From: Candidatus Babeliales bacterium
Lineage (GTDB): Bacteria; Babelota; Babeliae; Babelales; JANWKD01
Direction: 5' to 3'
NCBI GenBank assembly: GCA_963722075.1
Contig: CAVRJM010000001.1
Coordinates: 800,001 to 864,000, forward strand
DNA length: 64,000 nt
Position 1 is the stretch's first letter, and each line of letters begins with the position of its first letter. The notes under the pieces are model-generated. The model saw nothing but the letters and a program-made list of their open reading frames with translations. It was not told the DNA's origin and made no database searches. A program made the position numbers and the translations under genes. Shown here piece after piece: positions 12,523 to 29,307 of the stretch.

Positions 12523-13062
12523 TTAATTTAATAAGCATCCTTCACTAGGATTTTTATCATAATAAATTGCTTTTTCTGTACTCACCTTTTGCAACTCGTT
12601 CACTTGTTCCACCTTGTTCCTCACCATGGTTAATAAACCCAAACAATATATATGGTTAACCCAATTTTCTTCGGCCATTTTTTTAGCAGAAATATAACCG
12701 GCAAATTCATCACCAATGGTACACATTTTTTTCATAAATGCTTCAATATTATATACGCCTATTTTGCCCTCAGTATTAGGGGTTATTTGTATCCACGGAT
12801 ATTCTTTTTTGCCAGTAGAAATGCTAAGTACTGTTTCAAACTCTATTATTTGCCGATTAACAAATTTTTTTTCTTCTTCATTTAGTTGAGATGACTCAAC
12901 TATCTTTTTATTATTATCAATCACATCAGAAACAATTTGATCTATTTGCGGTACTAATTTCTCTATAAATGGATTAGAGGAAGTTATTCGTTTTTCTTCT
13001 TGCTGCATAGCAACACATGAAATATGAATACATATAAGTGCTATATAAATACGTAGCTTCAT
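12523..13062 (-). CDS. Secreted protein (signal + MQ) ending in CaaX-like CLLN; paralog of 13094-13534
   Basis: MKLRIYIALICIHISCVA-MQQEE...SEGCLLN*. Confidence 0.75.
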   Translation of the reverse strand: MKLRIYIALICIHISCVAMQQEEKRITSSNPFIEKLVPQIDQIVSDVIDNNKKIVESSQLNEEEKKFVNRQIIEFETVLSISTGKKEYPWIQITPNTEGKIGVYNIEAFMKKMCTIGDEFAGYISAKKMAEENWVNHIYCLGLLTMVRNKVEQVNELQKVSTEKAIYYDKNPSEGCLLN

Positions 13063-13093: not shown

Positions 13094-13534
13094 TTACTCT
13101 TCTGACGCTAATTCATCAATTCTCTTTTTTAAGTCAACTAATACATCCATTGCTTCTTTGTGCTTCTTTAAGTAGCACCTATCAATAGTCCCACATTTTA
13201 CAAAAAAAACTAGCTTCGCTTCTATCTCAGTTGCCAGCTTCACAATAGTATCAATATCGTATATTCCAGCATTTCCACGGTTTGATAGCTCATCACCATT
13301 AAGCTTATGTTTTTTGCCCGTCGACCGGTTTAATACAAATTTGAATTGAGCTGCTTTCCAGTTGAAAAAATCTTTTTCCTCTTTAAATAAATTAGGTAAC
13401 TTAGCGATCAATGCAGTGTTACTCGCCATTTTTTGTATAATATCATCTATCGAATGTTCTTTCTTGGCAGTCATCCCCATGCTTTCTACCCCTATTGCAA
13501 CTACCAAAAATAACAACACTCTATAGAATCTCAT
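13094..13534 (-). CDS. Secreted protein (signal + MG); paralog of 12523-13062
   Basis: Shared EEK-F-N...F-VL-STGKK...G-G-Y-I pattern. Confidence 0.7.
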   Translation of the reverse strand: MRFYRVLLFLVVAIGVESMGMTAKKEHSIDDIIQKMASNTALIAKLPNLFKEEKDFFNWKAAQFKFVLNRSTGKKHKLNGDELSNRGNAGIYDIDTIVKLATEIEAKLVFFVKCGTIDRCYLKKHKEAMDVLVDLKKRIDELASEE

Positions 13535-14007: not shown

Positions 14008-14104
14008 ATGAAATATAATAACAAATATTCACATCTCATCAATCTTTAATAAATTGCTTTTACTTACTTGTTTATTAGTATAATTTTTACCAAAGGAGAA
14101 TCTT

Positions 14105-14521
14105 ATGAATAGAATGAAAAAAATTTCTTTATTATTTCCAATCTTATGCAGTTTAAACTATGCTACTGCAATGGAAAAAAGCAAAAGAGAAAAACAGCAA
14201 TCAATACAATTGGATCAATCATGGAAAGGCCAGCAAGAGGCAGTAGTAAAATGTATGACTCAATCTGAAATTCGTAAACAAACTTACAAATTTTATGAGC
14301 ATGGAATATTAAAAGCAACTTTTAATGCCCAAAAAAAGTATGTAATAATTTATCCTACTGGCCAAAAAACAAAGAATAGTGATGAAAAAGAAAAATTAAA
14401 GATAAAATATAAATTCTTTCTCCAAATTATTACTGATATGGCATTAAGCAATGATGATAAAAAATGCCTTGAGGATCTTACTCAACTAAATGAAAAACGC
14501 CATTCTTGTTTAGTAAGTTGA
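14105..14521 (+). CDS. Secreted CaaX-family protein (W-x-G family) ending in CLVS
   Basis: MKKISLLFPILCSLNYATA-MEKS...QSWKGQQE...TFNAQ...KRHSCLVS*. Confidence 0.8.
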   Translation: MNRMKKISLLFPILCSLNYATAMEKSKREKQQSIQLDQSWKGQQEAVVKCMTQSEIRKQTYKFYEHGILKATFNAQKKYVIIYPTGQKTKNSDEKEKLKIKYKFFLQIITDMALSNDDKKCLEDLTQLNEKRHSCLVS

Positions 14522-14596
14522 ATTTAATTAAACCCTGTTATTCAACTTGAAATCTTCGAATGCAAAAAAAGTCTTGCTTAATTTATGTAAGTTTAC

Positions 14597-14839
14597 AAAA
14601 GCCGTCGTTGCGAGTTTACGAAGCAATCCAGGCTCAGTTATAAGTTTTTCGTTATACATAAATTTATTAATGTTCACAACCCAATTCCAATACAGATTTA
14701 TATAAATCTGATAAAATCATTAACTTTCTTATTCATCTATTGTTGAGCGATAAAACTTGTAACTGTTGTTTCTATAACCGTATATAATTTCATTTATTTT
14801 AACCTGGATTGCTTCGGCAAGCTCGCAACGACGGCTTTT
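14597..14839. repeat. Inverted REP pair about 170 bp apart (REPIN/MITE-like)
   Basis: aaaagccgtcgttgcgag...gaagcaatccagg at 14597-14632 and its near reverse complement at 14803-14839, with an AT-rich spacer. Confidence 0.85.
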
Positions 14840-14893
14840 TTAATGCATAATTTTTTAGGCTTTGAATATTAATTCATCGCGCTTTATAAAAAT

Positions 14894-17335
<2,442 letters not shown>

Positions 17336-17357
17336 AAAATTTTCACTAAAAATGTTA

Positions 17358-18314
17358 TTATTTTGCTTCGTGATTATAATATAATTTGTGTCCACCTTGA
17401 GCACAGCATGGTGCCAATGCGTATCGATTATTAGCTAATTCTTTAAAGCGCGGCAACAGACCTTGTACATATGTATAAAAACTGCCCATCGACATTCCTT
17501 CTGCCTCACGTTCTGCTTCTAATTCAATCCTACTTATCAAACAAAGACCCGAAGAATGTCGTTCAATGCTGCAGATTGCATTGGTAGTCTCATGAAGCAT
17601 CTGCACTGCTTTTTTATTTTTGGCTAGAATAGCAATTTCCATAGTATTGAAAGTAGAATCAGCAGGAATATTAGGGCAACATGCTCTATCACGCTGGATC
17701 CCTACTTTATAGCATTCCATCAATACAAACATTAGCTCAGTTGCCCCACTTGGCTTAGTGATTTGAGCAAGAATATGCAATAACGTTTCCCCTTTATTGC
17801 CTTGTTTATTTACGTCACTGATAAAGCCATGTTCAATAACATATTTTAATTTATGAAAATTACGTAAAGCGCATTTATTATTTTCACGAACGGTTTTTTG
17901 TATCGTTTGTATTCGTTCTCGATTAGAATCATTTTCCAGTTTATTGTGCTCAATATCTTCTAGTAAACCTTGGTCATGCTCATTTATAGCTGATTGCCGC
18001 GCGAAGATATGGGTGAGCGTATCTTTATCAGCATAGCAGTTACTTACCACTTCTTGTGCAACTGCTAAAGGAAGTTCGCTTAGAAAAGTAACTGGAATTC
18101 TATCTTCAAGTAACCAAAAACGTATGGTACCTACATTACCCGGCAGTCCTATTGTGCCATTTTCTATTGCAGCGCGAAGCGCTTTTAATTTGGCCTGCTC
18201 AGAAACTTCATGCATACCATATTCATCTACGGTATATTTTGCAGTAAAATCTGATTCCATAGTATAGAGAATACTGCTACTAAGAAATAAGATGCATAAT
18301 GAAAACAAATACAT
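17358..18314 (-). CDS. Secreted protein (signal + ME) with ankyrin-like repeat
   Basis: MYLFSLCILFLSSSILYT-MESDF; DVNKQGNKGETLLHILA. Confidence 0.7.
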   Translation of the reverse strand: MYLFSLCILFLSSSILYTMESDFTAKYTVDEYGMHEVSEQAKLKALRAAIENGTIGLPGNVGTIRFWLLEDRIPVTFLSELPLAVAQEVVSNCYADKDTLTHIFARQSAINEHDQGLLEDIEHNKLENDSNRERIQTIQKTVRENNKCALRNFHKLKYVIEHGFISDVNKQGNKGETLLHILAQITKPSGATELMFVLMECYKVGIQRDRACCPNIPADSTFNTMEIAILAKNKKAVQMLHETTNAICSIERHSSGLCLISRIELEAEREAEGMSMGSFYTYVQGLLPRFKELANNRYALAPCCAQGGHKLYYNHEAK

Positions 18315-18329
18315 AGTAACCCTTTTTAA

Positions 18330-19352
18330 TTAAATAATACCCACTAATTCTACCCAATTATGAATATCTTCGCTAATTCCATATTGAATGTCAGTAAGCA
18401 ATGTAAATAGCTTCTGAGTAAAAGGACCGGTCTGATTATTATTTACCGTGTACGTAGTGCCTTTATATCGTAAACTTCCTACTGGTGTTATAACCGCAGC
18501 CGTACCTGAGCCAAATATCTCAGTAACTGAGCCATTTTTAATACCCTCAACAACTTCATGAATAGTTATTCGCCGTTCTTGGCAGGCAATGCCATTGGCT
18601 TTACACAATTCAAGAACAGATAAGCGGGTAATACCGGGCAAAATTGAATCGGTTAATGAAGGAGTCACCACCACACCATCTATTACAAAGAAAATATTCA
18701 TGGCCCCGACTTCTTCAATATAGTTTCTCTCAATAGGATCGAGCCATAATACTTGCGCACAGCCAACAGCTTGCGCTTCTTTTTGTGCCCGCATACTAGC
18801 AGCATAATTACCACCAGCTTTTGCTTGCCCAACGCCACCTGCTGAAGCACGTGTATAATGTTCGCTCACTAAAATAGAAACCGGATTAAATCCTTGCTCA
18901 TATAACGCACCAACGGGCGATAGAATAATAAAAAATATAAAATCGGTAGAAGGCTTTAGATTAAGTGTTTTTTGAGTAGCAATCATCGTTGGTCGAATAT
19001 ACAGCGAAGTTCCCCTCTCAGTAGGCACCCATTGCTTATCCAGTTCAACAAGCTTTTTAAGCCATGAAAGAACTTCCTCAACATCAATTTCAGGCATACA
19101 CATAATACGCGCAGAATTATTCATACGTGTTAAGTTGTTACGCGGCCTAAATAGCACTATTCGATCATTAGTAGCAGCAAATGCTTTCATACCTTCAAAG
19201 ATTTCTTGCCCGTAATGCAAGCTTGCAACGGCAGGATCCAATTGAAAAGATTGATAAGGTTGAATACGCTTATTATACCACCCTTGCTCAGTATTCCATT
19301 CCATAACAAACATGTGATCAGTAAATTGCGATCCAAATGGTTTATTTTTCAT
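18330..19352 (-). CDS. ilvE: Branched-chain amino acid aminotransferase
   Basis: LHYGQEIFEGMKA, YIRP, KAGGNY, EVGAMNIF, ILPGITR, GTAAVI. Confidence 0.95.
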   Translation of the reverse strand: MKNKPFGSQFTDHMFVMEWNTEQGWYNKRIQPYQSFQLDPAVASLHYGQEIFEGMKAFAATNDRIVLFRPRNNLTRMNNSARIMCMPEIDVEEVLSWLKKLVELDKQWVPTERGTSLYIRPTMIATQKTLNLKPSTDFIFFIILSPVGALYEQGFNPVSILVSEHYTRASAGGVGQAKAGGNYAASMRAQKEAQAVGCAQVLWLDPIERNYIEEVGAMNIFFVIDGVVVTPSLTDSILPGITRLSVLELCKANGIACQERRITIHEVVEGIKNGSVTEIFGSGTAAVITPVGSLRYKGTTYTVNNNQTGPFTQKLFTLLTDIQYGISEDIHNWVELVGII

Positions 19353-19764
19353 GATAATTGCCCTTTATATTCCTTAGTTTGCACATACATTTGCCAATCA
19401 TACATACAATATTTTTACGAGTCGGAATACTTAAAACAGTAAAAACAGCTTGGTTAAAAATATTAGAAAAAATAAAAATGCCCATAAAAATGCGGCGAAT
19501 ATATAAAGGCCAATGAGCACGGCGTGCACTGCTGGTCATAAAAAACCCAAAGCCACCAATTATGATAAAAACCCCAATTACTATCTTAAGAAGATCCATC
19601 GTATATAGACCGAGTTCATATTCTATTTCACAAAGATCTTGCTCAATGCCCGCTTTTAATAATAAAGGGACAACGAGGCTGGCAATAATTAATAAGAGAC
19701 CTACCATTATCTGATTATTTTTTTTCATATAAATCCTTTGTAATTTATAATGAAGATTGCTCAT
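19342..19764 (-). CDS. Small membrane protein
   Basis: Three hydrophobic segments; start uncertain. Confidence 0.5.
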   Translation of the reverse strand: MSNLHYKLQRIYMKKNNQIMVGLLLIIASLVVPLLLKAGIEQDLCEIEYELGLYTMDLLKIVIGVFIIIGGFGFFMTSSARRAHWPLYIRRIFMGIFIFSNIFNQAVFTVLSIPTRKNIVCMIGKCMCKLRNIKGNYHEK

Positions 19765-20085
19765 TATTGAACAACCTTCATTATAACTTGTTGTTTACGC
19801 TTTATTAACCATTTTGCCAATAAAAGCAACCCGTTGCAGATAACGATCAACCTGTGCAATTGCTGGCAATTGTCCAACTGCGTTAAATGAATTAAAAATA
19901 ACGATAATAAAAAGAGGTAAAATAATAATAAGAATAAAAAAGATTAGCAGTAGAAGAAAGAAGAATGAGTTATAAGGTTAAAATTCTAATTAATAGTAAT
20001 AATAGCACAAAAAATGACTTTTTGTCAAAAAAAGCAAATTGCAGAACACTGGCCTAATCTTGATAGGTATAAGGCTTGATCTGGG

Positions 20086-20313
20086 CTATATACATTCAAA
20101 AGTTTTATCGTCAGCCTCAGACGCCCATTCACTTAATGTTTGATTTAATGCTTGCATATAAGCTTTATCAAAATTTTTAGTTTTCTTTATAACAATGTTA
20201 TTGTTATCCAGTATTTGAAAAGCAATCGAATCACCTGACTTTAGATCTAAAAAATCACGTATTTCTTTAGGTATGGTCGCTTGAAATTTTGTACTTAATT
20301 TTGAAAATTTCAT
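20086..20313 (-). CDS. AbrB/MazE-type antitoxin-like DNA-binding protein
   Basis: SKLSTKFQATIPKEIRDFLDLKSGDSIAF; acidic EWASEADD tail. Confidence 0.85.
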   Translation of the reverse strand: MKFSKLSTKFQATIPKEIRDFLDLKSGDSIAFQILDNNNIVIKKTKNFDKAYMQALNQTLSEWASEADDKTFECI

Positions 20314-20601
20314 ATGTTTTACCTTCTATATTAGATAGTATTTAAGTTTATTATATTAAAAGTAATAGCAATAATACAGGTATTACTATCCATCAAACGC
20401 CTACTAGGCTCTTTATTGTAGCTATTTTATTAAAAAAACTTTTGTAGCAATCCACTTTCATAATTTCTTACAAAAAGCATTTATATATGCTATTTTTTTA
20501 TGGGATTTATTAACATCTAGAAATAGCACAATATATAAAAAATAATCAAACTATTGCTATGCTAGAAGAAAAACTACGTAATAAAGAAAATAAAAAATCT
20601 C

Positions 20602-21423
20602 ATGATGCAACCAATAAGTAATAAATCGTCTTTCATTTATTTATTAGCAACCTGTGTATCAATTCTGCCCACGCTCTTTTCAATGGATAATATAAAACGA
20701 AAGCCTCGTTCTATATCAATGAGTGGATCAGTACTAGATCTTTTTGGCGCACTAGAAATAGATGATAGCCATGAATGTATAACTAAGATGCAAAGAACTA
20801 TACAACCGGATACTGACTTAAATTACCAATCTTCGCAAGGAACTCCCTTAGAGCGAGCTATTGATCTAGAAAAAATTGAAGCAGTTGATTTTCTAATAAG
20901 TAAGGGTAGTAACGCAAACCTTAAAAGCAATTGGTTTAAAGAAACACCACTTCATCGTGCGGCGCGAGCAGGAAATGTTGCGATTATTCAAAAACTTCTT
21001 TGCAAAGTAACAGATCTACAACCCCTTAATAGCGTAGATCAAACACCCCTTCATTTGGCCGTTATATGCTGCCATATAGATGCAGCACGTGAATTTATAA
21101 ATCAAGGGTTGAATGTAAATGCTACTACGAAAAACCTTATGACCCCATTGCATTATGCGTGCATGTTTTCACAAAAACATGCTGAAAGGCACCGGCTCAT
21201 TAATCTATTATTACAAAAGGGAGCATCACTAACTAGTCGTGAAGCACATTATTTTACCCCCTTTGATTTAGCAATCAATGCCGAAAATGTAGAAACAGTA
21301 ACATTTCTTCTGACTAAAATAACCGATCAATCCGTTTTAACAGATTCTTTAAAAATAGCTCAGCAAAAAGGCAACCAAGCCATAATACGCTTATTGCAAG
21401 AAGCTCTCAATAATAAATATTAA
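20602..21423 (+). CDS. Secreted ankyrin-repeat protein (signal + MD)
   Basis: TPLERA, TPLHRAA, TPLHLAV, TPLHYAC, TPFDLA repeats. Confidence 0.9.
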   Translation: MMQPISNKSSFIYLLATCVSILPTLFSMDNIKRKPRSISMSGSVLDLFGALEIDDSHECITKMQRTIQPDTDLNYQSSQGTPLERAIDLEKIEAVDFLISKGSNANLKSNWFKETPLHRAARAGNVAIIQKLLCKVTDLQPLNSVDQTPLHLAVICCHIDAAREFINQGLNVNATTKNLMTPLHYACMFSQKHAERHRLINLLLQKGASLTSREAHYFTPFDLAINAENVETVTFLLTKITDQSVLTDSLKIAQQKGNQAIIRLLQEALNNKY

Positions 21424-21673
21424 TTTTTGCGTTTTAATAATGGGTAAAACATTGTTTTAGAATAAAGCTTATACAGATATATTTTATTATATATATACTT
21501 TAATACCATCTTCATAATAAGCCCTCCTCTACTGTAATGTTTTCATTTCTTTAATTTAATAAAATTATAATTAAAAAATCTATGGCCTGTTCATTATTTC
21601 AAAGTGCTTAACTGTATACTTTTTTTACCAGTTCATGTTATCCCTAAATAATAATGGTTAAAAAGGAGAAAAA

Positions 21674-22054
21674 ATGGCTAAATTACTTGTTATTAATGCA
21701 TTACCAAAAAATTATTACGATGATTGCCATATTGTAGGATCAATTAGTGTTCCACTTGATAAGTTGGAAGCTTATGCACATACTTTAGATAAAAAAACAC
21801 CTATTGTTGTTTATTGCGCTTCATATAGTTGTCCTATTAGCCAAAAAGCATGGCGCATTTTTAATGCCTTAGGATTTACTTCCGTATGGGCTTATGAAGG
21901 GGGAATGGCGGAATGGAGCCAAAAAGATTTCCCCTGTGCCGGTGTATGCCAACAAGAATCTCTTAATCGGCAAGAAAAGCCTCAAAAGCGCGATACACAA
22001 ACCATCAGCGCAGAAGAGTTGCGCAAAAAAATGGAAAATGAGGGCCTTCTATAA
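21674..22054 (+). CDS. Rhodanese-like domain protein
   Basis: HIVGSISVP, IVVYCAS, YEGGMAEW. Confidence 0.85.
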   Translation: MAKLLVINALPKNYYDDCHIVGSISVPLDKLEAYAHTLDKKTPIVVYCASYSCPISQKAWRIFNALGFTSVWAYEGGMAEWSQKDFPCAGVCQQESLNRQEKPQKRDTQTISAEELRKKMENEGLL

Positions 22055-22150
22055 ACCACCCCCTCCTAAATGCCGTTGCACTTTATTTATAAAAAAAGCA
22101 GACTGATAGAATAAAAAACATAAAAGTAGAATTATAAGGATAGAAGAGCA

Positions 22151-22780
22151 ATGCAAATACAAAAACAAACTCCCATACTACAAAAAGAGCATGACGAATC
22201 AATTTTAGTAGTTAATAGAACTGAATTTTTTAAGCATGAATCAGCATGGACTGGCCTTAAACAAGTTGATTTTGATGCGTACTTAACGTTAATTCAAGAA
22301 AAAAAAGAGTTCTTACCGCGCCCAACAATGGAAACGGATACTAATTACAAACAAATTATTCCTTATTTAGTTTTTTCTCATGATGATCGTTACTTTTTAA
22401 TGCAACGAACTAACCAGCAAACTGAAAGCCGCTTAAGAAACAAATATTCATTGGGTATTGGCGGCCATATACGCAAAGAAGATTTAACCGATAATTCTAT
22501 TTTTTCATGGGCACAACGAGAATTTCATGAAGAAGTTAATTATAAAGACCATTTTACTATCACCCCGCTTGGTATTTTAAATGATGATTCTAATGCCGTA
22601 GGCCAGGTGCATGTTGGCTTTATATTTTTATTACAAGGAACCACTTCAGACATTTCTATAAAATCTGAGCTTAAAAGCGGGCAACTCGTTTCATTAGATG
22701 AATGCTCGTTCCATTTTAATGATATGGAAAGCTGGAGCCAAATTGTATACGAATTTTTAATGCAGCAAAAAAATCGTTAA
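22151..22780 (+). CDS. Predicted NUDIX-family phosphoesterase
   Basis: YKQIIPY, SLGIGGHI, REFHEEV, VGQVHVG, ESWS. Confidence 0.85.
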   Translation: MQIQKQTPILQKEHDESILVVNRTEFFKHESAWTGLKQVDFDAYLTLIQEKKEFLPRPTMETDTNYKQIIPYLVFSHDDRYFLMQRTNQQTESRLRNKYSLGIGGHIRKEDLTDNSIFSWAQREFHEEVNYKDHFTITPLGILNDDSNAVGQVHVGFIFLLQGTTSDISIKSELKSGQLVSLDECSFHFNDMESWSQIVYEFLMQQKNR

Positions 22781-22794
22781 AAAAATTCTAAGCA

Positions 22795-23013
22795 ATGTTT
22801 ATTATTATCGTTGGATCAAAGCAACGCAAGATCTTTAAAAAAGCTCTTGTTGATCGATTTTGCCCGATATGTAACCATCAAGGATTACTATTGTATTCTA
22901 TACAGCAATGGGCGACTTTATTTTTAGTTCCTATTTTCCCGGTGAGTAGAAAAAAATTGTATATCAAATGTCCTCATTGCAATAATGGCTATATTGCTTA
23001 CGATACACCGTAA
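22795..23013 (+). CDS. Zinc-ribbon domain protein
   Basis: CPIC...WATLFLVPIFP...CPHC. Confidence 0.75.
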   Translation: MFIIIVGSKQRKIFKKALVDRFCPICNHQGLLLYSIQQWATLFLVPIFPVSRKKLYIKCPHCNNGYIAYDTP

Positions 23014-24301
23014 CTTTTTAAAAAAGCGTACAGATTTTTAAATATAAAATAATCAATTGCTTCTTTAACTGTCTGCGCGCCATATTTTTTCTCTAACAAA
23101 TCTCGGTGCTTTAAAAACTCATTCACGATAGTAGGGCATGGCGTTTTTGGCCATTGTACTTTAGGTGGCTGCCCATGGGATTCCACCATATTTGAGACAA
23201 GATGCTCGCCAACTTTTTGTAGATCTTTAGCTGCTTTATTTATTTTTGCTATTTCTTGTTTACAATAATTAACAACATCTGTTTTCCCAGCTTTTTGCGC
23301 AGCTTTTGCTAACTTAGCAAATTCATCGGATGTTTTTCTTAGATGATCATATTTATTGGCGACTGTTTGGAAAAATTTATGATGCAGTACCATATCAATC
23401 GCACCATCAAGTAATACTTCAAGCATCTGTGGCCCCGTCAATTTAAAAAAATCGCCAAAATGCATAGAAATGCCAGCCAATGCAACGAGTGTCAATCCTT
23501 TATTAGCTATTTGAAAAAGCGGCATATTTTTGCAAGCAATACTCGCCATAAAACAAATAGCGGACATCATTTCTGGGCTATAGAGCTCGCTTAAATCAAC
23601 GCCATCGTCCAGTAACTCCTGCATCTTTTGCATGCGGAATTCAGGTTCTGTCGGTATTATTTCTTCCATGGTTAATTGCTCCCATGGCAGTCTAAAATTT
23701 CCTGCGGTTACGATGGAATTAAGTCTATTAACACCATCAATCAATAAGTGCGTATTATGTGCCAATGACTTTGCTGCAAATGAAAGGAAATGATCAGAAT
23801 ATATAAGCGCATTATTAAACTGTTCGTAAATATTTTGTGCTCTTCTATGAACTACATTACCTGCTGCTTGGGCATACTTTAAGAGCTCTCTTCCAAATTC
23901 AATATATTGCGATACAATCGTATTATCATTCTGTTGGGCATGGTTATAGGCAATTTCGCCATATAAGAATGCTGTGGCAGCCAATTCACGTGCTGCAGTT
24001 GTTTGGGCATCAGACCATTGCTCAAGCGCATCCGCACAGAAAGATTTAATAGCGCGGGTGTTTTCGTCACCATCATCAATTAATTGCTCATCAGCAGTTG
24101 ATTATAATGCAGTTCTAAATCAGCAATATGTACAATTGCACTTAAATTGGCAGATAGTGGAGATGCCTCTATCGAAAGAACAGCTGACAAGGAAGTAAGT
24201 TTTGCATGTAATTGGTTTAAAGAGTTTTCAAGTGCTTGGTTTGGATATACAAATTGGTTACATACCATTAAGAAGCTGATCATGTACCCTCTCATATTCA
24301 T
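22998..24301 (-). pseudogene. Secreted hypothetical protein with one frameshift near 24100
   Basis: Signal-bearing ORF 24080-24301 joins the frame of 22998-23984, which is open upstream to about 24102 (STADEQLIDDGDENTRAIKSF...). Confidence 0.6.
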
Positions 24302-24315
24302 ATCCTTTTTGTTAA

Positions 24316-24681
24316 TTAAAATAATATACAATTACTTCTAACGGTTTTTACACCCTTATGATAAAATAAGAGGGCATTAATATTGCATTTCATAATAGTT
24401 TCAAAGCATTCATAACTTAGTTCAATTGAACTTTTATTTTTAAAGAAAGTAGTAACGGTACGATGGGGATAATCAAATAAGGCGATTAATTCTGCATCAA
24501 TGGTCATAAAAGGTACCGCATCTGGAGAAACTTGTGCTGTTTTCATTAATCGATCAATAAATTGTTCTCTTTGTGCCCACCGTTTTTTTACTTTTTTTAT
24601 TTGTGATGAAGTAAGCGGTTCCATTGAATATGAAAAATTACCGTATATTATTAGAAATATAAAAATAGAAAATGATTTCAT
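24316..24681 (-). CDS. Secreted CaaX-family protein ending in CILF
   Basis: MKSFSIFIFLIIYGNFSYS-MEPL...VRSNCILF*. Confidence 0.8.
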   Translation of the reverse strand: MKSFSIFIFLIIYGNFSYSMEPLTSSQIKKVKKRWAQREQFIDRLMKTAQVSPDAVPFMTIDAELIALFDYPHRTVTTFFKNKSSIELSYECFETIMKCNINALLFYHKGVKTVRSNCILF

Positions 24682-24752: not shown

Positions 24753-25196
24753 TTAATTAATAATGCATTCTGTTGCTTTGTCCTCATTTCTCACGCTAAC
24801 GTTGTATCTAATGCCTTTTGAATCAGGCAAAGATCGCATGCTTTCGTGGGTAAGAAGCGCTAATTCTTCTTGAGCGAGCGGTGAAGGAGAAATGGCTTTT
24901 AGAAAAATATCAAATTCTATCTCTCTAAAACTTGTTAATTCAGATCCAAAATAAAATATTACCTTGTTTTGAGATGCGTTAAAACATACCTCTAATTGCT
25001 CATTCTTATAATAAACTGGTAGCTTGGCTCGCTGAGCAGATTCCATACATTCCTTGGCAAGCTCCTGCTTACCATTCCAAAGTGCTAATTGATTCAAAAA
25101 AGATTTATCAATTTCTTCGGCATTCATTGAACGTAACGGTAAAAAACCCGTAAGAATCCCCAATAAGATAATAGTTTTAATATTCGTTGCTTGCAT
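24753..25196 (-). CDS. Secreted CaaX-family protein ending in CIIN
   Basis: Signal-MNAEE...WNGKQE...CFNAS...ATECIIN*. Confidence 0.8.
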   Translation of the reverse strand: MQATNIKTIILLGILTGFLPLRSMNAEEIDKSFLNQLALWNGKQELAKECMESAQRAKLPVYYKNEQLEVCFNASQNKVIFYFGSELTSFREIEFDIFLKAISPSPLAQEELALLTHESMRSLPDSKGIRYNVSVRNEDKATECIIN

Positions 25197-25232: not shown

Positions 25233-25808
25233 TTAGCTAATGAGACACGTTGCTGCTGCCATTACTGCACTTCCATCATTATATAACTTTTCTTTTGGAT
25301 GAGTATCTCCATTCATTAGATTATTAATTTTAGCTGCACAATCTATTTCAAATAATGCTTGATCTACATCTAACTTTAATGATGCAATCGAATTTATAAT
25401 ATCATCTGTTTCATTTGAAATAACATTTAAGAAAGTATTAAATGGTATTTTGTGATAATCTTCTTGATTATGAAGCGAAATAACATTTTCTTCCGCATTA
25501 AAACTAGCCACTAATTCGTTTGAATTATAGGTAAATGGTTCTCCAGTAGCGCGCGCAAAATCCATACAAAGAATAGCAAGTTTAGTTTTACCATTCCATA
25601 CAATTAACTGCTTTAATAAATATGTATCATGCATTATTGGTAAATCACCCATAGCCACAGCCGTTAATGCTGACGTATCCTCATCAGCCGTAACCATCAA
25701 TGATAACATATTCTCGTCTTTTTTTTCTTCCTGCTCCATAGAAAACAAATAGGAATAATTGAATGTACCACACAACACAATAACCATTCTAATCTTTTTA
25801 GCTGCCAT
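25233..25808 (-). CDS. Secreted CaaX-family protein ending in CLIS
   Basis: Signal-MEQEE...WNGKTK...SFNAE...AATCLIS*. Confidence 0.8.
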   Translation of the reverse strand: MAAKKIRMVIVLCGTFNYSYLFSMEQEEKKDENMLSLMVTADEDTSALTAVAMGDLPIMHDTYLLKQLIVWNGKTKLAILCMDFARATGEPFTYNSNELVASFNAEENVISLHNQEDYHKIPFNTFLNVISNETDDIINSIASLKLDVDQALFEIDCAAKINNLMNGDTHPKEKLYNDGSAVMAAATCLIS

Positions 25809-25834: not shown

Positions 25835-26230
25835 TTAATATAAATTACAATTCCATCCGGTTCGTGCAGGCGCTTCAGATTTTTCTTCTTTTTTAGCTTC
25901 TTTCTTTCCAGAAATATCATCGAGAAATTTTAATAAAGACTCATAGCTCATTGTTTCATCACCTAAAGATGAATTTAATCTCACGCTATCTTTATCAAAA
26001 ATAGTTGTAAATTTTTCTTGTTGAAACTCAATGCGTTTACCTGTTTCAATAACCTGGTTGCGATAATCGAGAATAATATCTTGTTTACCTTTCCATGAAT
26101 CGAGTAAAAAAACTAATCGCAATGCCTCAAAATCTACTTGACTCGTACGCCCTTGCTCCTGTTCCATACCAAACATGGAAGCCACGAATAATATTCCCAA
26201 TAGATTTCCTAAAAATAATTTCTTTATCAT
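25835..26230 (-). CDS. Secreted CaaX-family protein ending in CNLY
   Basis: Signal-MEQEQ...SWKGKQD...IFDKD...GWNCNLY*. Confidence 0.8.
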   Translation of the reverse strand: MIKKLFLGNLLGILFVASMFGMEQEQGRTSQVDFEALRLVFLLDSWKGKQDIILDYRNQVIETGKRIEFQQEKFTTIFDKDSVRLNSSLGDETMSYESLLKFLDDISGKKEAKKEEKSEAPARTGWNCNLY

Positions 26231-26245
26231 ACAAACTCCTTTGTA

Positions 26246-27340
26246 TTATTGTATATATTTAATACGCCAACCGGCTTCCATATAGTTCTTAACTTCAGTA
26301 AATTTTTCTTTAAATGCGGCATCTAATTCAGTTAATCTAAATGTTCCCTGCGCCGTTCTAATCCACGGATCAATGCCACGGAATTTATTTTTAGCGAGCA
26401 TATCATAATCAGCAGAATCAACACAGTTAATCAATTCTTTAATATGTAATGCTTTTTGTAGATTTTTTTGCAAGAGTTCATCATCTGAATTAATTAATTT
26501 TTCCCATACCATTTCATCAACTGAAAAATGAATCTCATCGCTAGTGATTAAACCAATTGCCAATGCTTGTTTTAAAACAGCTGCCATAATCTCATTGGCA
26601 ACAAAACTATTATAATTATTCCATCCATTTTCATTTTGCATAAAATAGAATGGAATTAAAGCAAATTTTCGCGCATATTCAATGTCAGTAAATATCCACG
26701 CACCTTGTTCTACAATCAAATGATCCAATATATTCTTAATATCTTCTTCAGTAAGCAACTGCTCTACCAAGGCACCTTGCAAATTATATTCTAAACGATC
26801 GGCGCATAATTCAGGCAATTTTTGCTCTAACAATATAAACCCGTCATTCTTATGTAAAATATCATTCACCTTAATATCGTGTTTTTTTAGTAACGCAGGG
26901 ATCGAAGTATTATTAATAAAATGTAAATGATTATGATCTTGATAAGAATCACCCATTTGAGAAACATTAAATAAAAAATCGCCACCATGAGAAAATACCG
27001 TATGAGAAACATCATGTAATAAACCAGCGATTTGTTCATGTAACGAGGCACCGTATTTGCGCAACAACACAAAAACGCCTATTGAATGGTCAAAACGATT
27101 GTAATCTATTTTTTTAATAGTGTAATAATTGGTACCATATTGGCGTATTTTTTTAAGCCGTTGTACATAGGAATCGTTAATCAACTCAATTAATACCGGC
27201 TCATTAATTAAAAAATCACCGTAAATAGTTTCTAGTAATAACGATGGCTTTTGTTCATGTTCGTACGAAGCTTTTATTAAAATACCCATCACAAAAAATA
27301 AACCCATTATGAATAGTATTCGTGAACTTTTTCTTATCAT
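26246..27340 (-). CDS. HD-domain phosphohydrolase with N-terminal signal/anchor
   Basis: RLKKIRQYG, NRFDHSIGV, LLHDVSHTVFSH, LCADRLEY. Confidence 0.85.
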   Translation of the reverse strand: MIRKSSRILFIMGLFFVMGILIKASYEHEQKPSLLLETIYGDFLINEPVLIELINDSYVQRLKKIRQYGTNYYTIKKIDYNRFDHSIGVFVLLRKYGASLHEQIAGLLHDVSHTVFSHGGDFLFNVSQMGDSYQDHNHLHFINNTSIPALLKKHDIKVNDILHKNDGFILLEQKLPELCADRLEYNLQGALVEQLLTEEDIKNILDHLIVEQGAWIFTDIEYARKFALIPFYFMQNENGWNNYNSFVANEIMAAVLKQALAIGLITSDEIHFSVDEMVWEKLINSDDELLQKNLQKALHIKELINCVDSADYDMLAKNKFRGIDPWIRTAQGTFRLTELDAAFKEKFTEVKNYMEAGWRIKYIQ

Positions 27341-27503
27341 AGCTGTTTCCTTTACGATAATATGATTTATTTCTATTAAAAATGAATAGTATAATAAACA
27401 AAAGCGATTCATACAAATTTCTTGTATTATTGCATAAAACTATTTTTATTATGGTATATATAAGAAATATAGTTACCATCTTTATTTTAGTAGAGAAATT
27501 ATT

Positions 27504-28160: not shown

Positions 28161-29307
28161 ATGAATTTCAAAAAACTATCCATCGTTTTTGTGACTAATA
28201 ATTATACGCCGTACCAAGGAGGTGTTGTAAGCTCCATTAAACAGCATATACAAGCGCTGCAAGAATTAGGACATACCGTTCATCTTATTACTCTTGATTT
28301 TGTACCTAATATGCAAGATGAACCCCACGTCACTCGTCTTTTTTGTCCTATTCGATTTAACTATAAAACAAATCCCATGGCGGTCCCCTTGCTCCCTAAT
28401 TATTCCGTGCAGAAAATAATTGAACAAATCAATCCTGATATTATTCATGCCCATCATCCTTTTTTACTGGGTAGCGCGGCATTGAAAGCAGCAAAAAAAT
28501 CTACTATTCCTATTGTATTTACGTACCATACGCTCTACCATCATTACCTTCACTATATTCCGCTGCCTCAACCACTCAGTAAAACGTTAGTAGAAAAACA
28601 TGTTGCCTTTTTTTGCAAACAAGTAAATGGCATTATAGCACCCAGCAATGCGGTCAAACAATTAATACAAAAAAAATGTACAACGCCCATACAAGTAATT
28701 CCCAGCGCTATTGCACCATTATTCTTCAATAAAAAAGTTGCCTCAGGTTTAGAAAAATCCTATCAATTTATTAACAGTCAGCAGATTTACCAAAGAAAAA
28801 AATCTTTATTTTTTACTTGATGTTATTGCCCTGCTTAAATCACAACAATTTGTTTTAACATTAGTCGGCTATGGCGCAGAGTATGCTGCTTTAAAAGAAT
28901 ATGCTTATGGGGTAAAAAAACTAAATCCAAACACAGTACGTTTTATTGAACGTCCTTCCACGCATGCATTAGCACAGGCTTATCAACAAGCGGATCTGTT
29001 TCTTTTTTCTTCAACTACTGACACCCAAGGCATTGTTCTTGGTGAGGCAATGGCTTCTGGAACTCCCGTCATTGCACTGGATGGCCCCGGGCAACGCGAT
29101 ATCATTCTTGATGGTATTAATGGTTTTTTAGTTACTAATAAAGAAGAAATGGTGGAAAAAATTAACTCTATAAGCGCTAACCCCTCCTTATTTGGCCAGT
29201 TACAACACCATGCGCATATAACAGCTCAACAATTTCTACCTGAATCTATTATAAATCAGCTCTGTTGCTTCTATCAAAATACGTTAGAAAAAATACCCAT
29301 CCATTGA
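28161..29307 (+). pseudogene. GT4 glycosyltransferase with one frameshift near 28730-28760
   Basis: N-half PYQGGV, DIIHAHHPF, TYHTLY; C-half in another frame LLTVSRFTKEKN...TDTQGIVLGEAMASGTPV. Confidence 0.8.

Follow-up and report, generated by a model that had tools for sequence, protein, structure and literature searches.

The gene at 14105-14521 raises two questions: whether it marks an independent locus of a protein family encoded in a nearby array, and whether the CaaX end of this family is a substrate for host prenylation. The window, i.e., the whole stretch of 64,000 nucleotides that was analyzed, covers positions 800001-864000 of contig C1 of a Babeliales genome (G000, 1.47 Mb, 99% complete), whose 1326 called ORFs served as the comparison set. 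Coordinates are window positions unless a contig (C1, C3) or a locus (L) is named. The features are listed in Table 1.

Table 1. Features of the window around gene 14105
Feature	Position	Strand	Remark
Family member P0001, 138 aa	14105..14521	+	likely displaced leuS-proximal gene of the array
Signal-peptide-like region, aa 1-22	14105..14170	+	basic start, hydrophobic stretch, ...YATA ahead of MEK
Core domain, ~aa 37-113	14213..14443	+	helix, four strands, helix; conserved W40, F73, Y-x-x-F
CaaX box C135-L-V-S and stop codon	14507..14521	+	sequence, short-read contig, yeast FTase screen scores
Inverted REP-like pair	14593..14843	.	arms 14593-14632 and 14803-14843; between gene 14105 and leuS
Inferred inverted segment versus G001, G003, G004 and other Babeliales	14048..24300	.	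left end ~14048; right end between 24090 and 24316
Class I aminoacyl-tRNA synthetase (leuS)	14890..17328	-	frameshifted in the assembly; synteny anchor convergent with 14105
Array member P0002, end CILF	24316..24681	-	
Array member P0003, end CIIN	24753..25196	-	closest in-genome relative of P0001
Array member P0004, end CLIS	25233..25808	-	
Array member P0005, end CNLY	25835..26230	-	
HD-domain gene	26246..27412	-	head of array, synteny anchor; PF01966 E=1.7e-5

The ORF is preceded by AGGAG at 14094-14098, and its product ends KRHSCLVS. CLVS and the stop codon were confirmed by a short-read contig (X1 14358-14547, 0 differences; the X1 run possibly stems from the source sample). A sixth copy, P0006 on contig C3, is 94% identical to P0001 and has retained CLVS and the stop, while the two genes differ synonymously in 9 codons and non-synonymously in 8. 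The signal peptide was called by a heuristic rather than by SignalP, and its cleavage site was placed by eye. In the test for bacterial lipoproteins, a lipobox (N-terminal Cys) was absent from P0001, and the pattern matched only 1 of 87 family proteins. A promoter scan at the gene was uninformative (7 sites versus 6.1 expected), and it gave no terminator-like site. The REP pair that had been reported directly downstream is real (arms 90% complementary), but it is generic: 39 arm matches were found at 31 intergenic loci of the genome, none of the 39 inside called ORFs, and three shuffles gave 0 matches. Because the C3 copy is followed by a different repeat, the pair is not part of the P0001 unit.

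The first-pass annotation had described P0001 as a fifth member of the CaaX family, and this was borne out. All core peptides that it had quoted are present in P0001 and in P0003, the protein encoded at 24753, and the feature set of the array family is complete in P0001: signal-like N-terminus, W..F..Y-x-x-F core and Cys at position -4. The core is similar also without signal and tail. In a leave-one-out HMM comparison, in which the array cores had been stripped of their signal regions and last 8 aa and the four were run against the 1326 ORFs, P0001 was found with a significant E=1.2e-6, versus 0.011 for the best non-family ORF. In the same test P0003 was recovered at 1.8e-8 and P0004 at 5.1e-11, and P0002 and P0005 were missed (E about 0.5). 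With a 76-row core profile, which contains P0002 and P0005, all five members had E<=1e-11, and apart from these and the C3 copy nothing in the genome fell below 0.039. BLASTP aligned 83 aa of P0001 and P0003 at 27% identity (pairwise E=1e-7), and phmmer with the mature cores against the 1326 ORFs linked P0001 to P0003 with E=1.9e-5. Matches in a word-indexed protein search were confined to proteins of the source genome.

The distance of about 10 kb to the array and the opposite orientation had been given correctly (9.8 kb). The status of an independent locus was not upheld, since the gene lies in the same HD-leuS slot as the array once one inversion is undone. The labels HD, talA, umuC/D, rhodanese and class I synthetase are supported by Pfam, and NUDIX-like, DEAD, ilvE and leuS are presumptive labels assigned from motifs. 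In G004 the order is NUDIX-like(-), rhodanese(-), leuS(+), three family genes(-), HD(-), talA(+), and G003 has the same order minus the rhodanese gene. In G001, which belongs to the same genus as the source genome, the left part reads DEAD(+), umuC(-), umuD(-), ..., NUDIX-like(-), rhodanese(-), ..., ilvE(+), leuS(+), followed by a short gene(-) whose signal-type product ends CWLF, then a small ORF, HD(-) and talA(+). The source genome has umuD(-), 14105(+), leuS(-), ilvE(-), ..., rhodanese(+), NUDIX-like(+), array(-), HD(-), talA(+). Flipping ~14048-24300 makes both flanks agree with G001 and the HD side with G003 and G004. The order talA/HD-leuS-NUDIX was present at 8 of 20 loci around the NUDIX-like gene, two of which (L060 and L062, carrying the same arrays) duplicate G003 and G004, and DEAD lies downstream of NUDIX at 2 of the 20, as the unflipped order predicts. 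Because the leuS slot is continuous with the HD array in G001, G003 and G004 and inverted in the source genome, 14105 is likely the displaced leuS-end gene of a five-gene array, moved by an inversion of about 10 kb.

The short-read contig X1 23845-24441 reads across the right junction of the inversion and agrees with the assembly throughout (0 differences), and at the left junction the short-read contig overlap is 21 nt only. A repeat was looked for at the inversion ends and was not found. In a tree from 77 columns, in which most forks were open, the leuS-proximal genes of G003 and G004 paired together (97/88) and P0001 stood apart from them. P0001 is thus tied to the leuS slot by position and not by orthology. 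Alternatively, 14105 might be an independently dispersed copy inserted beside leuS, or the apparent inversion might be a misassembly. A separate truncated ORF (24080-24331) follows 24316, so that adjacency to 14105 is not necessary, the gene upstream of the C3 copy is unrelated, and the leuS region of C1 is rich in errors (26 gap positions versus C3). Nevertheless, both readings are improbable in view of the single flip that restores both flanks and the HD side, the order shared by the 8 loci and the right junction that was read through. With a misassembly, moreover, 14105 would still be an array member.

Several further observations concern the assembly of this region. Contig C3 (21.5 kb) parallels window 14048-24090 in pieces (~83-96%), with other flanks and extra genes, and is probably from a related strain or species binned with the source genome. 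At the inferred right breakpoint, 22998-24331 (-) contains the 3' part left over from a signal-type protein of 1193 aa, which is whole on C3 (674-4255), together with a truncated 83-aa ORF. The leuS gene is broken into several frameshifted pieces, while the C3 copy, 86.7% identical, is intact; the frameshifts are likely consensus errors, because indels occur in short-read contigs too at several of these positions. A glycosyltransferase-like gene at 28161-29307 (+) is in two parts, versus a single gene in G003 (387 aa) and G001 (381 aa), and the split is possibly an assembly indel.

Retention at an independent locus had been taken to strengthen the prenylation hypothesis. This argument fails, and 14105 is not evidence for the hypothesis; the conclusion survives because truly dispersed copies in relatives keep the motif, and it is supported by far wider evidence. 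A search of 1.84 billion representatives with a 14-row profile gave 88 matches. After removal of the training rows, of 10 rows at least 60% identical to them and of one false match, 74 held-out homologues remained, 48 of which have Cys at -4, with I, L, V or M at a2 in 42; these counts overstate the certainty, because the profile held signal and tail columns, which favors CaaX-bearing matches, and because kin are not independent. Rescoring with the core only, a partial control, left Cys at -4 in 28 of 50 held-out homologues with at least 30 bits. The background in the source genome is 25 of 1326 ORFs, and the family effect is about 30-fold. Before near-duplicates were removed, Cys was found in 49 of 78 rows at -4, versus 16 at -5, 20 at -6 and 7 at -3. 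Position X of the 48 is Q in 17, S in 13, Y in 6, M, I, N and H in 2 each, and V, F, L and K in 1 each.

The tails of Ras and Rho proteins carry, beside the CaaX box, a second signal that is polybasic or palmitoylable; in H-Ras it consists of palmitoylated cysteines. Upstream of the CaaX box, 26 of the 48 homologues have at least three K/R and 17 an extra Cys, so that 33 resemble Ras/Rho tails in one or the other respect, while the family differs from these proteins in having no GTPase domain. P0001 itself is a poor example. The basic patch that had been reported consists of K131 and R132 after E130, i.e., two residues only, and is weak (the ten residues preceding the Cys have a net charge of +1). 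The terminal Cys is a lone one, with no other Cys within 13 residues of C135. The likening of its CaaX to CVLS of H-Ras therefore fits for the tetrapeptide, but not for a second signal.

The 76-row profile matched 12 of 261 whole genomes. On inspection, real holders were G000, G001, G003 and G004, all multi-copy, together with G247, G248, G062, G072 and G257. The members of G001, G003 and G004 that are outside the 14-row alignment end CxxX in 8 of 8 cases, and these eight are the truly dispersed copies: seven are spread over five loci outside the leuS region, and the eighth occupies a sixth locus. The members of G247 and G248, which belong to another taxon of family rank, end CSIQ, CTIL and CAIL. 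The matches of G002, G168, G076 and most other genome matches with E>1e-4 were rejected as weak and driven by the signal region; P0054 (SpaA repeats) and L073 (DUF5122 propeller) were false matches. A heuristic filter for a signal plus xM[E/D/Q..] was passed by 55 of 82 homologues, and M23 is the only nearly invariant column in the 76 rows.

Cys at -4 is lacking in 26 of the 74 held-out homologues. A net charge of at least +4 is enriched among these non-CaaX members (8/26 versus 15/192 controls), and at least three Cys in the last 12 residues were seen in 3/26 versus 2/192. An amphipathic helix in place of the CaaX box was unsupported (hydrophobic moment, p=0.51). In G062, G072 and G257 the core domain occurs without CaaX, which indicates that it can work without prenylation. 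At L054:7465-10036 of G072 it forms five and four tandem repeats in signal-type, CaaX-free proteins, with a single-domain copy alongside.

The prediction of farnesylation was followed with an all-CXXX screen of the yeast FTase (rows from Files S1, S2 and S4 of PMC10320760). CLVS scored 4.88 as Ydj1_HM, above the cutoff of 3, and 10.2 as Ras_HM (File S4); the Ydj1 score discriminates poorly, because most CXXX pass, and the enzyme is that of yeast and not of a protist. The array tails gave Ydj1_HM/Ras_HM values of 5.03/16.4 (CIIN), 4.64/18.0 (CLIS), 5.46/7.07 (CILF) and 4.43/2.88 (CNLY), and the references 4.63/8.37 (CVLS of H-Ras), 3.66/19.4 (CVIM) and 0.62/0.42 (CDDE). According to the same source, L, F, M or I at X favors GGTase-I, and thus CILF of P0002 is a possible geranylgeranyl substrate. 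By these values and by the a2/X pattern of its family, the box of P0001 is, at the level of sequence, acceptable to a eukaryotic FTase or GGTase-I. As judged from the sequences, a2 mostly L, I or V with X mostly Q or S is the pattern expected of farnesyltransferase substrates, and the bias towards Q and S predicts farnesylation. We consider it highly probable that the CaaX of the P0001 family is prenylated by the host.

The core of about 75 aa had no Pfam or NCBIfam match and no clear fold match in the structure libraries. AlphaFold2, with 14 as well as with 76 rows, predicted two helices, one at 44-57 and one starting at 102, and between them four strands (61-65, 68-74, 79-82, 98-101); pLDDT is 92-98 in the core blocks 41-80 and 101-110. 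YkuJ-like and PUR/PC4-like folds were the candidates compared, and Bacillus subtilis YkuJ (2ffg) resembles the model at the level of a common arrangement only (7% identity), which gives no hint of a function. The conservation is mostly hydrophobic (W40, F73, Y-x-x-F), none of these positions is invariant, there is no invariant polar residue in the 76 rows, and the cores diverge to about 20% identity. The domain is found singly, in tandem repeats and once, in P0056, in front of a C-terminal MYND zinc finger of eukaryotic type (PF01753, E=2.8e-9). We infer that the core is a binding module rather than an enzyme.

The CaaX ends were also compared with secretion, with the heuristic filter defining the signal-type class in all counts. 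In the source genome an end of the type Cx[ILVM]X is found in 7 of 162 signal-type proteins, versus 0.61 expected, and in 5 of 791 non-signal proteins, versus 3.0; minus the five family genes the signal-type count is 2 of 157 (p=0.12). Among non-family proteins at the loci of relatives, the counts are 3 of 70 signal-type proteins versus 0.22 expected and 1 of 375 non-signal proteins versus 1.53. By these sequence counts, the CaaX tag appears to track secretion. For export beyond Sec, the source genome has type II secretion system (T2SS) parts, i.e., two secretins, a GspE-type ATPase, GspG and three further N-methyl pseudopilins, with two T2SSE-family ATPases over the cut-off, and two Omp85 proteins. 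Injection systems were represented by a single marker each for type IV and type III: VirB4 (PF03135) and FlhB/YscU (PF01312) gave no match in the 99%-complete genome, while 1/14 and 4/14 controls were positive. A T2SS releases proteins only to the outside of the bacterium. In a lineage confined to a vacuole the protein would therefore not meet the cytosolic FTase. Cultured Dependentiae/Babeliales are described as protist parasites (PMC6561590, PMC4776705), and Chromulinavorax as replicating in the host cytoplasm, with signal peptides in 44% of its CDS (PMC6561590). The TM6 genomes compared in PMC4776705 share T2SS components, with gspD in two copies.

Together, we regard it as probable that the proteins are exported by Sec, released by the T2SS into the protist cytosol and farnesylated by the host, so that their cores are displayed on host membranes, where they bind proteins. 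For P0001, the signal would be cleaved after about A22, and the protein exported by Sec would then pass through the T2SS into the cytosol of the host. There, C135 would be farnesylated by the host enzyme, followed by removal of aaX and methylation, also by the host. Anchoring would be expected at endomembranes near the replicating bacteria rather than as tight binding to the plasma membrane, because the second signal (K131 R132) is weak. The small alpha/beta domain would then act as a probable protein-binding, non-catalytic adaptor.

Alternatively, the proteins might be decoys, whose prenylated Ras/Rho-like tails compete for prenyltransferases, prenyl-binding chaperones or membrane sites, while the core is just a stable carrier. 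Tails such as KRKRKCCCILN, KKSKKKRCIIS and KVLKKKCSIQ are like the hypervariable regions of small GTPases, the number of copies per genome would fit, and so would the divergent cores devoid of an invariant polar residue. However, a core that occurs without CaaX, as four to five tandem repeats and fused to a MYND finger argues for a function of its own, and the tail of P0001 is only weakly basic, so that we hold decoys to be unlikely. It is distinctly unlikely that the Cys serves S-acylation, a disulphide or metal binding instead of prenylation. The extra upstream Cys of 17 CaaX members and the Cys-rich ends among the non-CaaX members would agree with such a role, but the sharp peak at -4, the aliphatic a2 and Q/S at X are predicted by prenyltransferase specificity alone, and P0001 has a single terminal Cys.

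Use of the terminal Cys by the bacterium itself, whose own Rce1-like (CPBP) protease would anchor the protein in the envelope as in MYXO-CTERM-type sorting, is very improbable: there, too, signal-peptide proteins of prokaryotes have a C-terminal Cys that is conserved, and PF02517 is present twice in the source genome and in all four other genomes of its family, but it is much more widespread than the P0001 family (30/41 relatives, 11/14 controls), the sorting signals described consist of a motif, a transmembrane helix and an Arg cluster (10.1101/2023.06.07.544157), whereas the P0001 family ends three residues after the Cys, and the a2/X preference follows eukaryotic FTase. A scan for the tripartite pattern hit 1 of 1326 ORFs, which is not a family member. 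The prenyltransferase families PF00432 and PF01239 had no match in the source genome, a weak result, as the controls were also below the cut-off. One of the two PF02517 proteins (contig C1, 732227-735598, -) is a multi-pass protein of 1123 aa, and open frames of similar length with the PF02517 domain are found in about a dozen other Babeliales genomes.

Host prenylation of bacterial proteins is already known from Legionella and Salmonella. Legionella pneumophila AnkB and PelA/C/D/E/H/I/K are described as host-prenylated effectors (PMC13081727, PMC4951486, PMC2916131). Common to both cases are several proteins per genome with a C-terminal CaaX, for which host prenylation and the resulting membrane anchoring are established in Legionella and predicted here; like Legionella, the source bacterium probably infects protists. 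The Legionella effectors, according to these sources, have varied domains, are delivered by Dot/Icm (type IV) and reside on the vacuole, whereas the P0001 family is one paralogous family with a small domain and Sec-type signals, whose genome encodes T2SS parts and gave no match to VirB4. SifA and GtgE of Salmonella are host-prenylated at a C-terminal CaaX as well, and SifA is S-acylated at a nearby Cys, reminiscent of the multi-Cys tails of many P0001 homologues (PMC4951486, PMC13423502). As described there, these effectors come from animal pathogens, are delivered by type III secretion and have known targets, and SifA is geranylgeranylated, in contrast to the farnesylation that Q/S at X predicts. 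Since the markers of type III and IV delivery gave no match and no sequence link to the Legionella effectors was found, we do not place the P0001 family among the Pel, AnkB or SifA proteins, although it would act in a similar way.

We tentatively propose a wider scheme, in which Sec and T2SS would deliver, needle-free, a dedicated family of small proteins with an uncatalogued domain and tails like those of Ras/Rho to the cytosol of the protist, for attachment to membranes by host FTase, and in which unrelated secreted WD40, ankyrin and orphan proteins may bear the same tag. A literature search, with subscription papers largely outside its reach, gave nothing that links Dependentiae or Babela with CaaX or prenylation, and neither "prenyl" nor "CaaX" nor "farnes" appears in the main text of PMC6561590 or of PMC4776705. 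If true, the scheme would extend host prenylation to a new phylum and a new delivery route, and it would offer a first lead, at the level of sequence, to the remodeling of host membranes by these parasites. Signal-peptide orphans make up a large share of Dependentiae/Babelota genomes. A CaaX is useful only where eukaryotic prenyltransferases are, i.e., in the cytosol, and the family is thus indirect evidence for cytosolic delivery by Sec/T2SS. Gene 14105 alone, likely an array member shifted by an inversion, adds little to this.

CaaX-like ends were also seen outside the family. In the window, 12523-13062 (-) and 13094-13534 (-) are paralogous signal-type orphans (E=3.3e-6 mutually) that separate umuD from umuC, two genes that are direct neighbors in G001. 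The protein of 12523-13062 ends SEGCLLN and is thus a second CaaX protein, unrelated to the P0001 family; as a query it had no match in 260 other genomes. Elsewhere on contig C1, signal-type proteins with such ends are a WD40 protein (CLLS, 980472-982682), an orphan (CILY, 1056081-1057202) and an ankyrin protein (CGIN, 343516-344121). In G001, a CPT/AAA-like kinase ending CCIY adjoins a family gene (L079:1996-2829), and a short CWLF protein faces leuS (L020:18499-18816). Two further non-family examples are an orphan ending CIIS (L067:866-1498) and an ankyrin protein ending CEVM (L033:529-1842).
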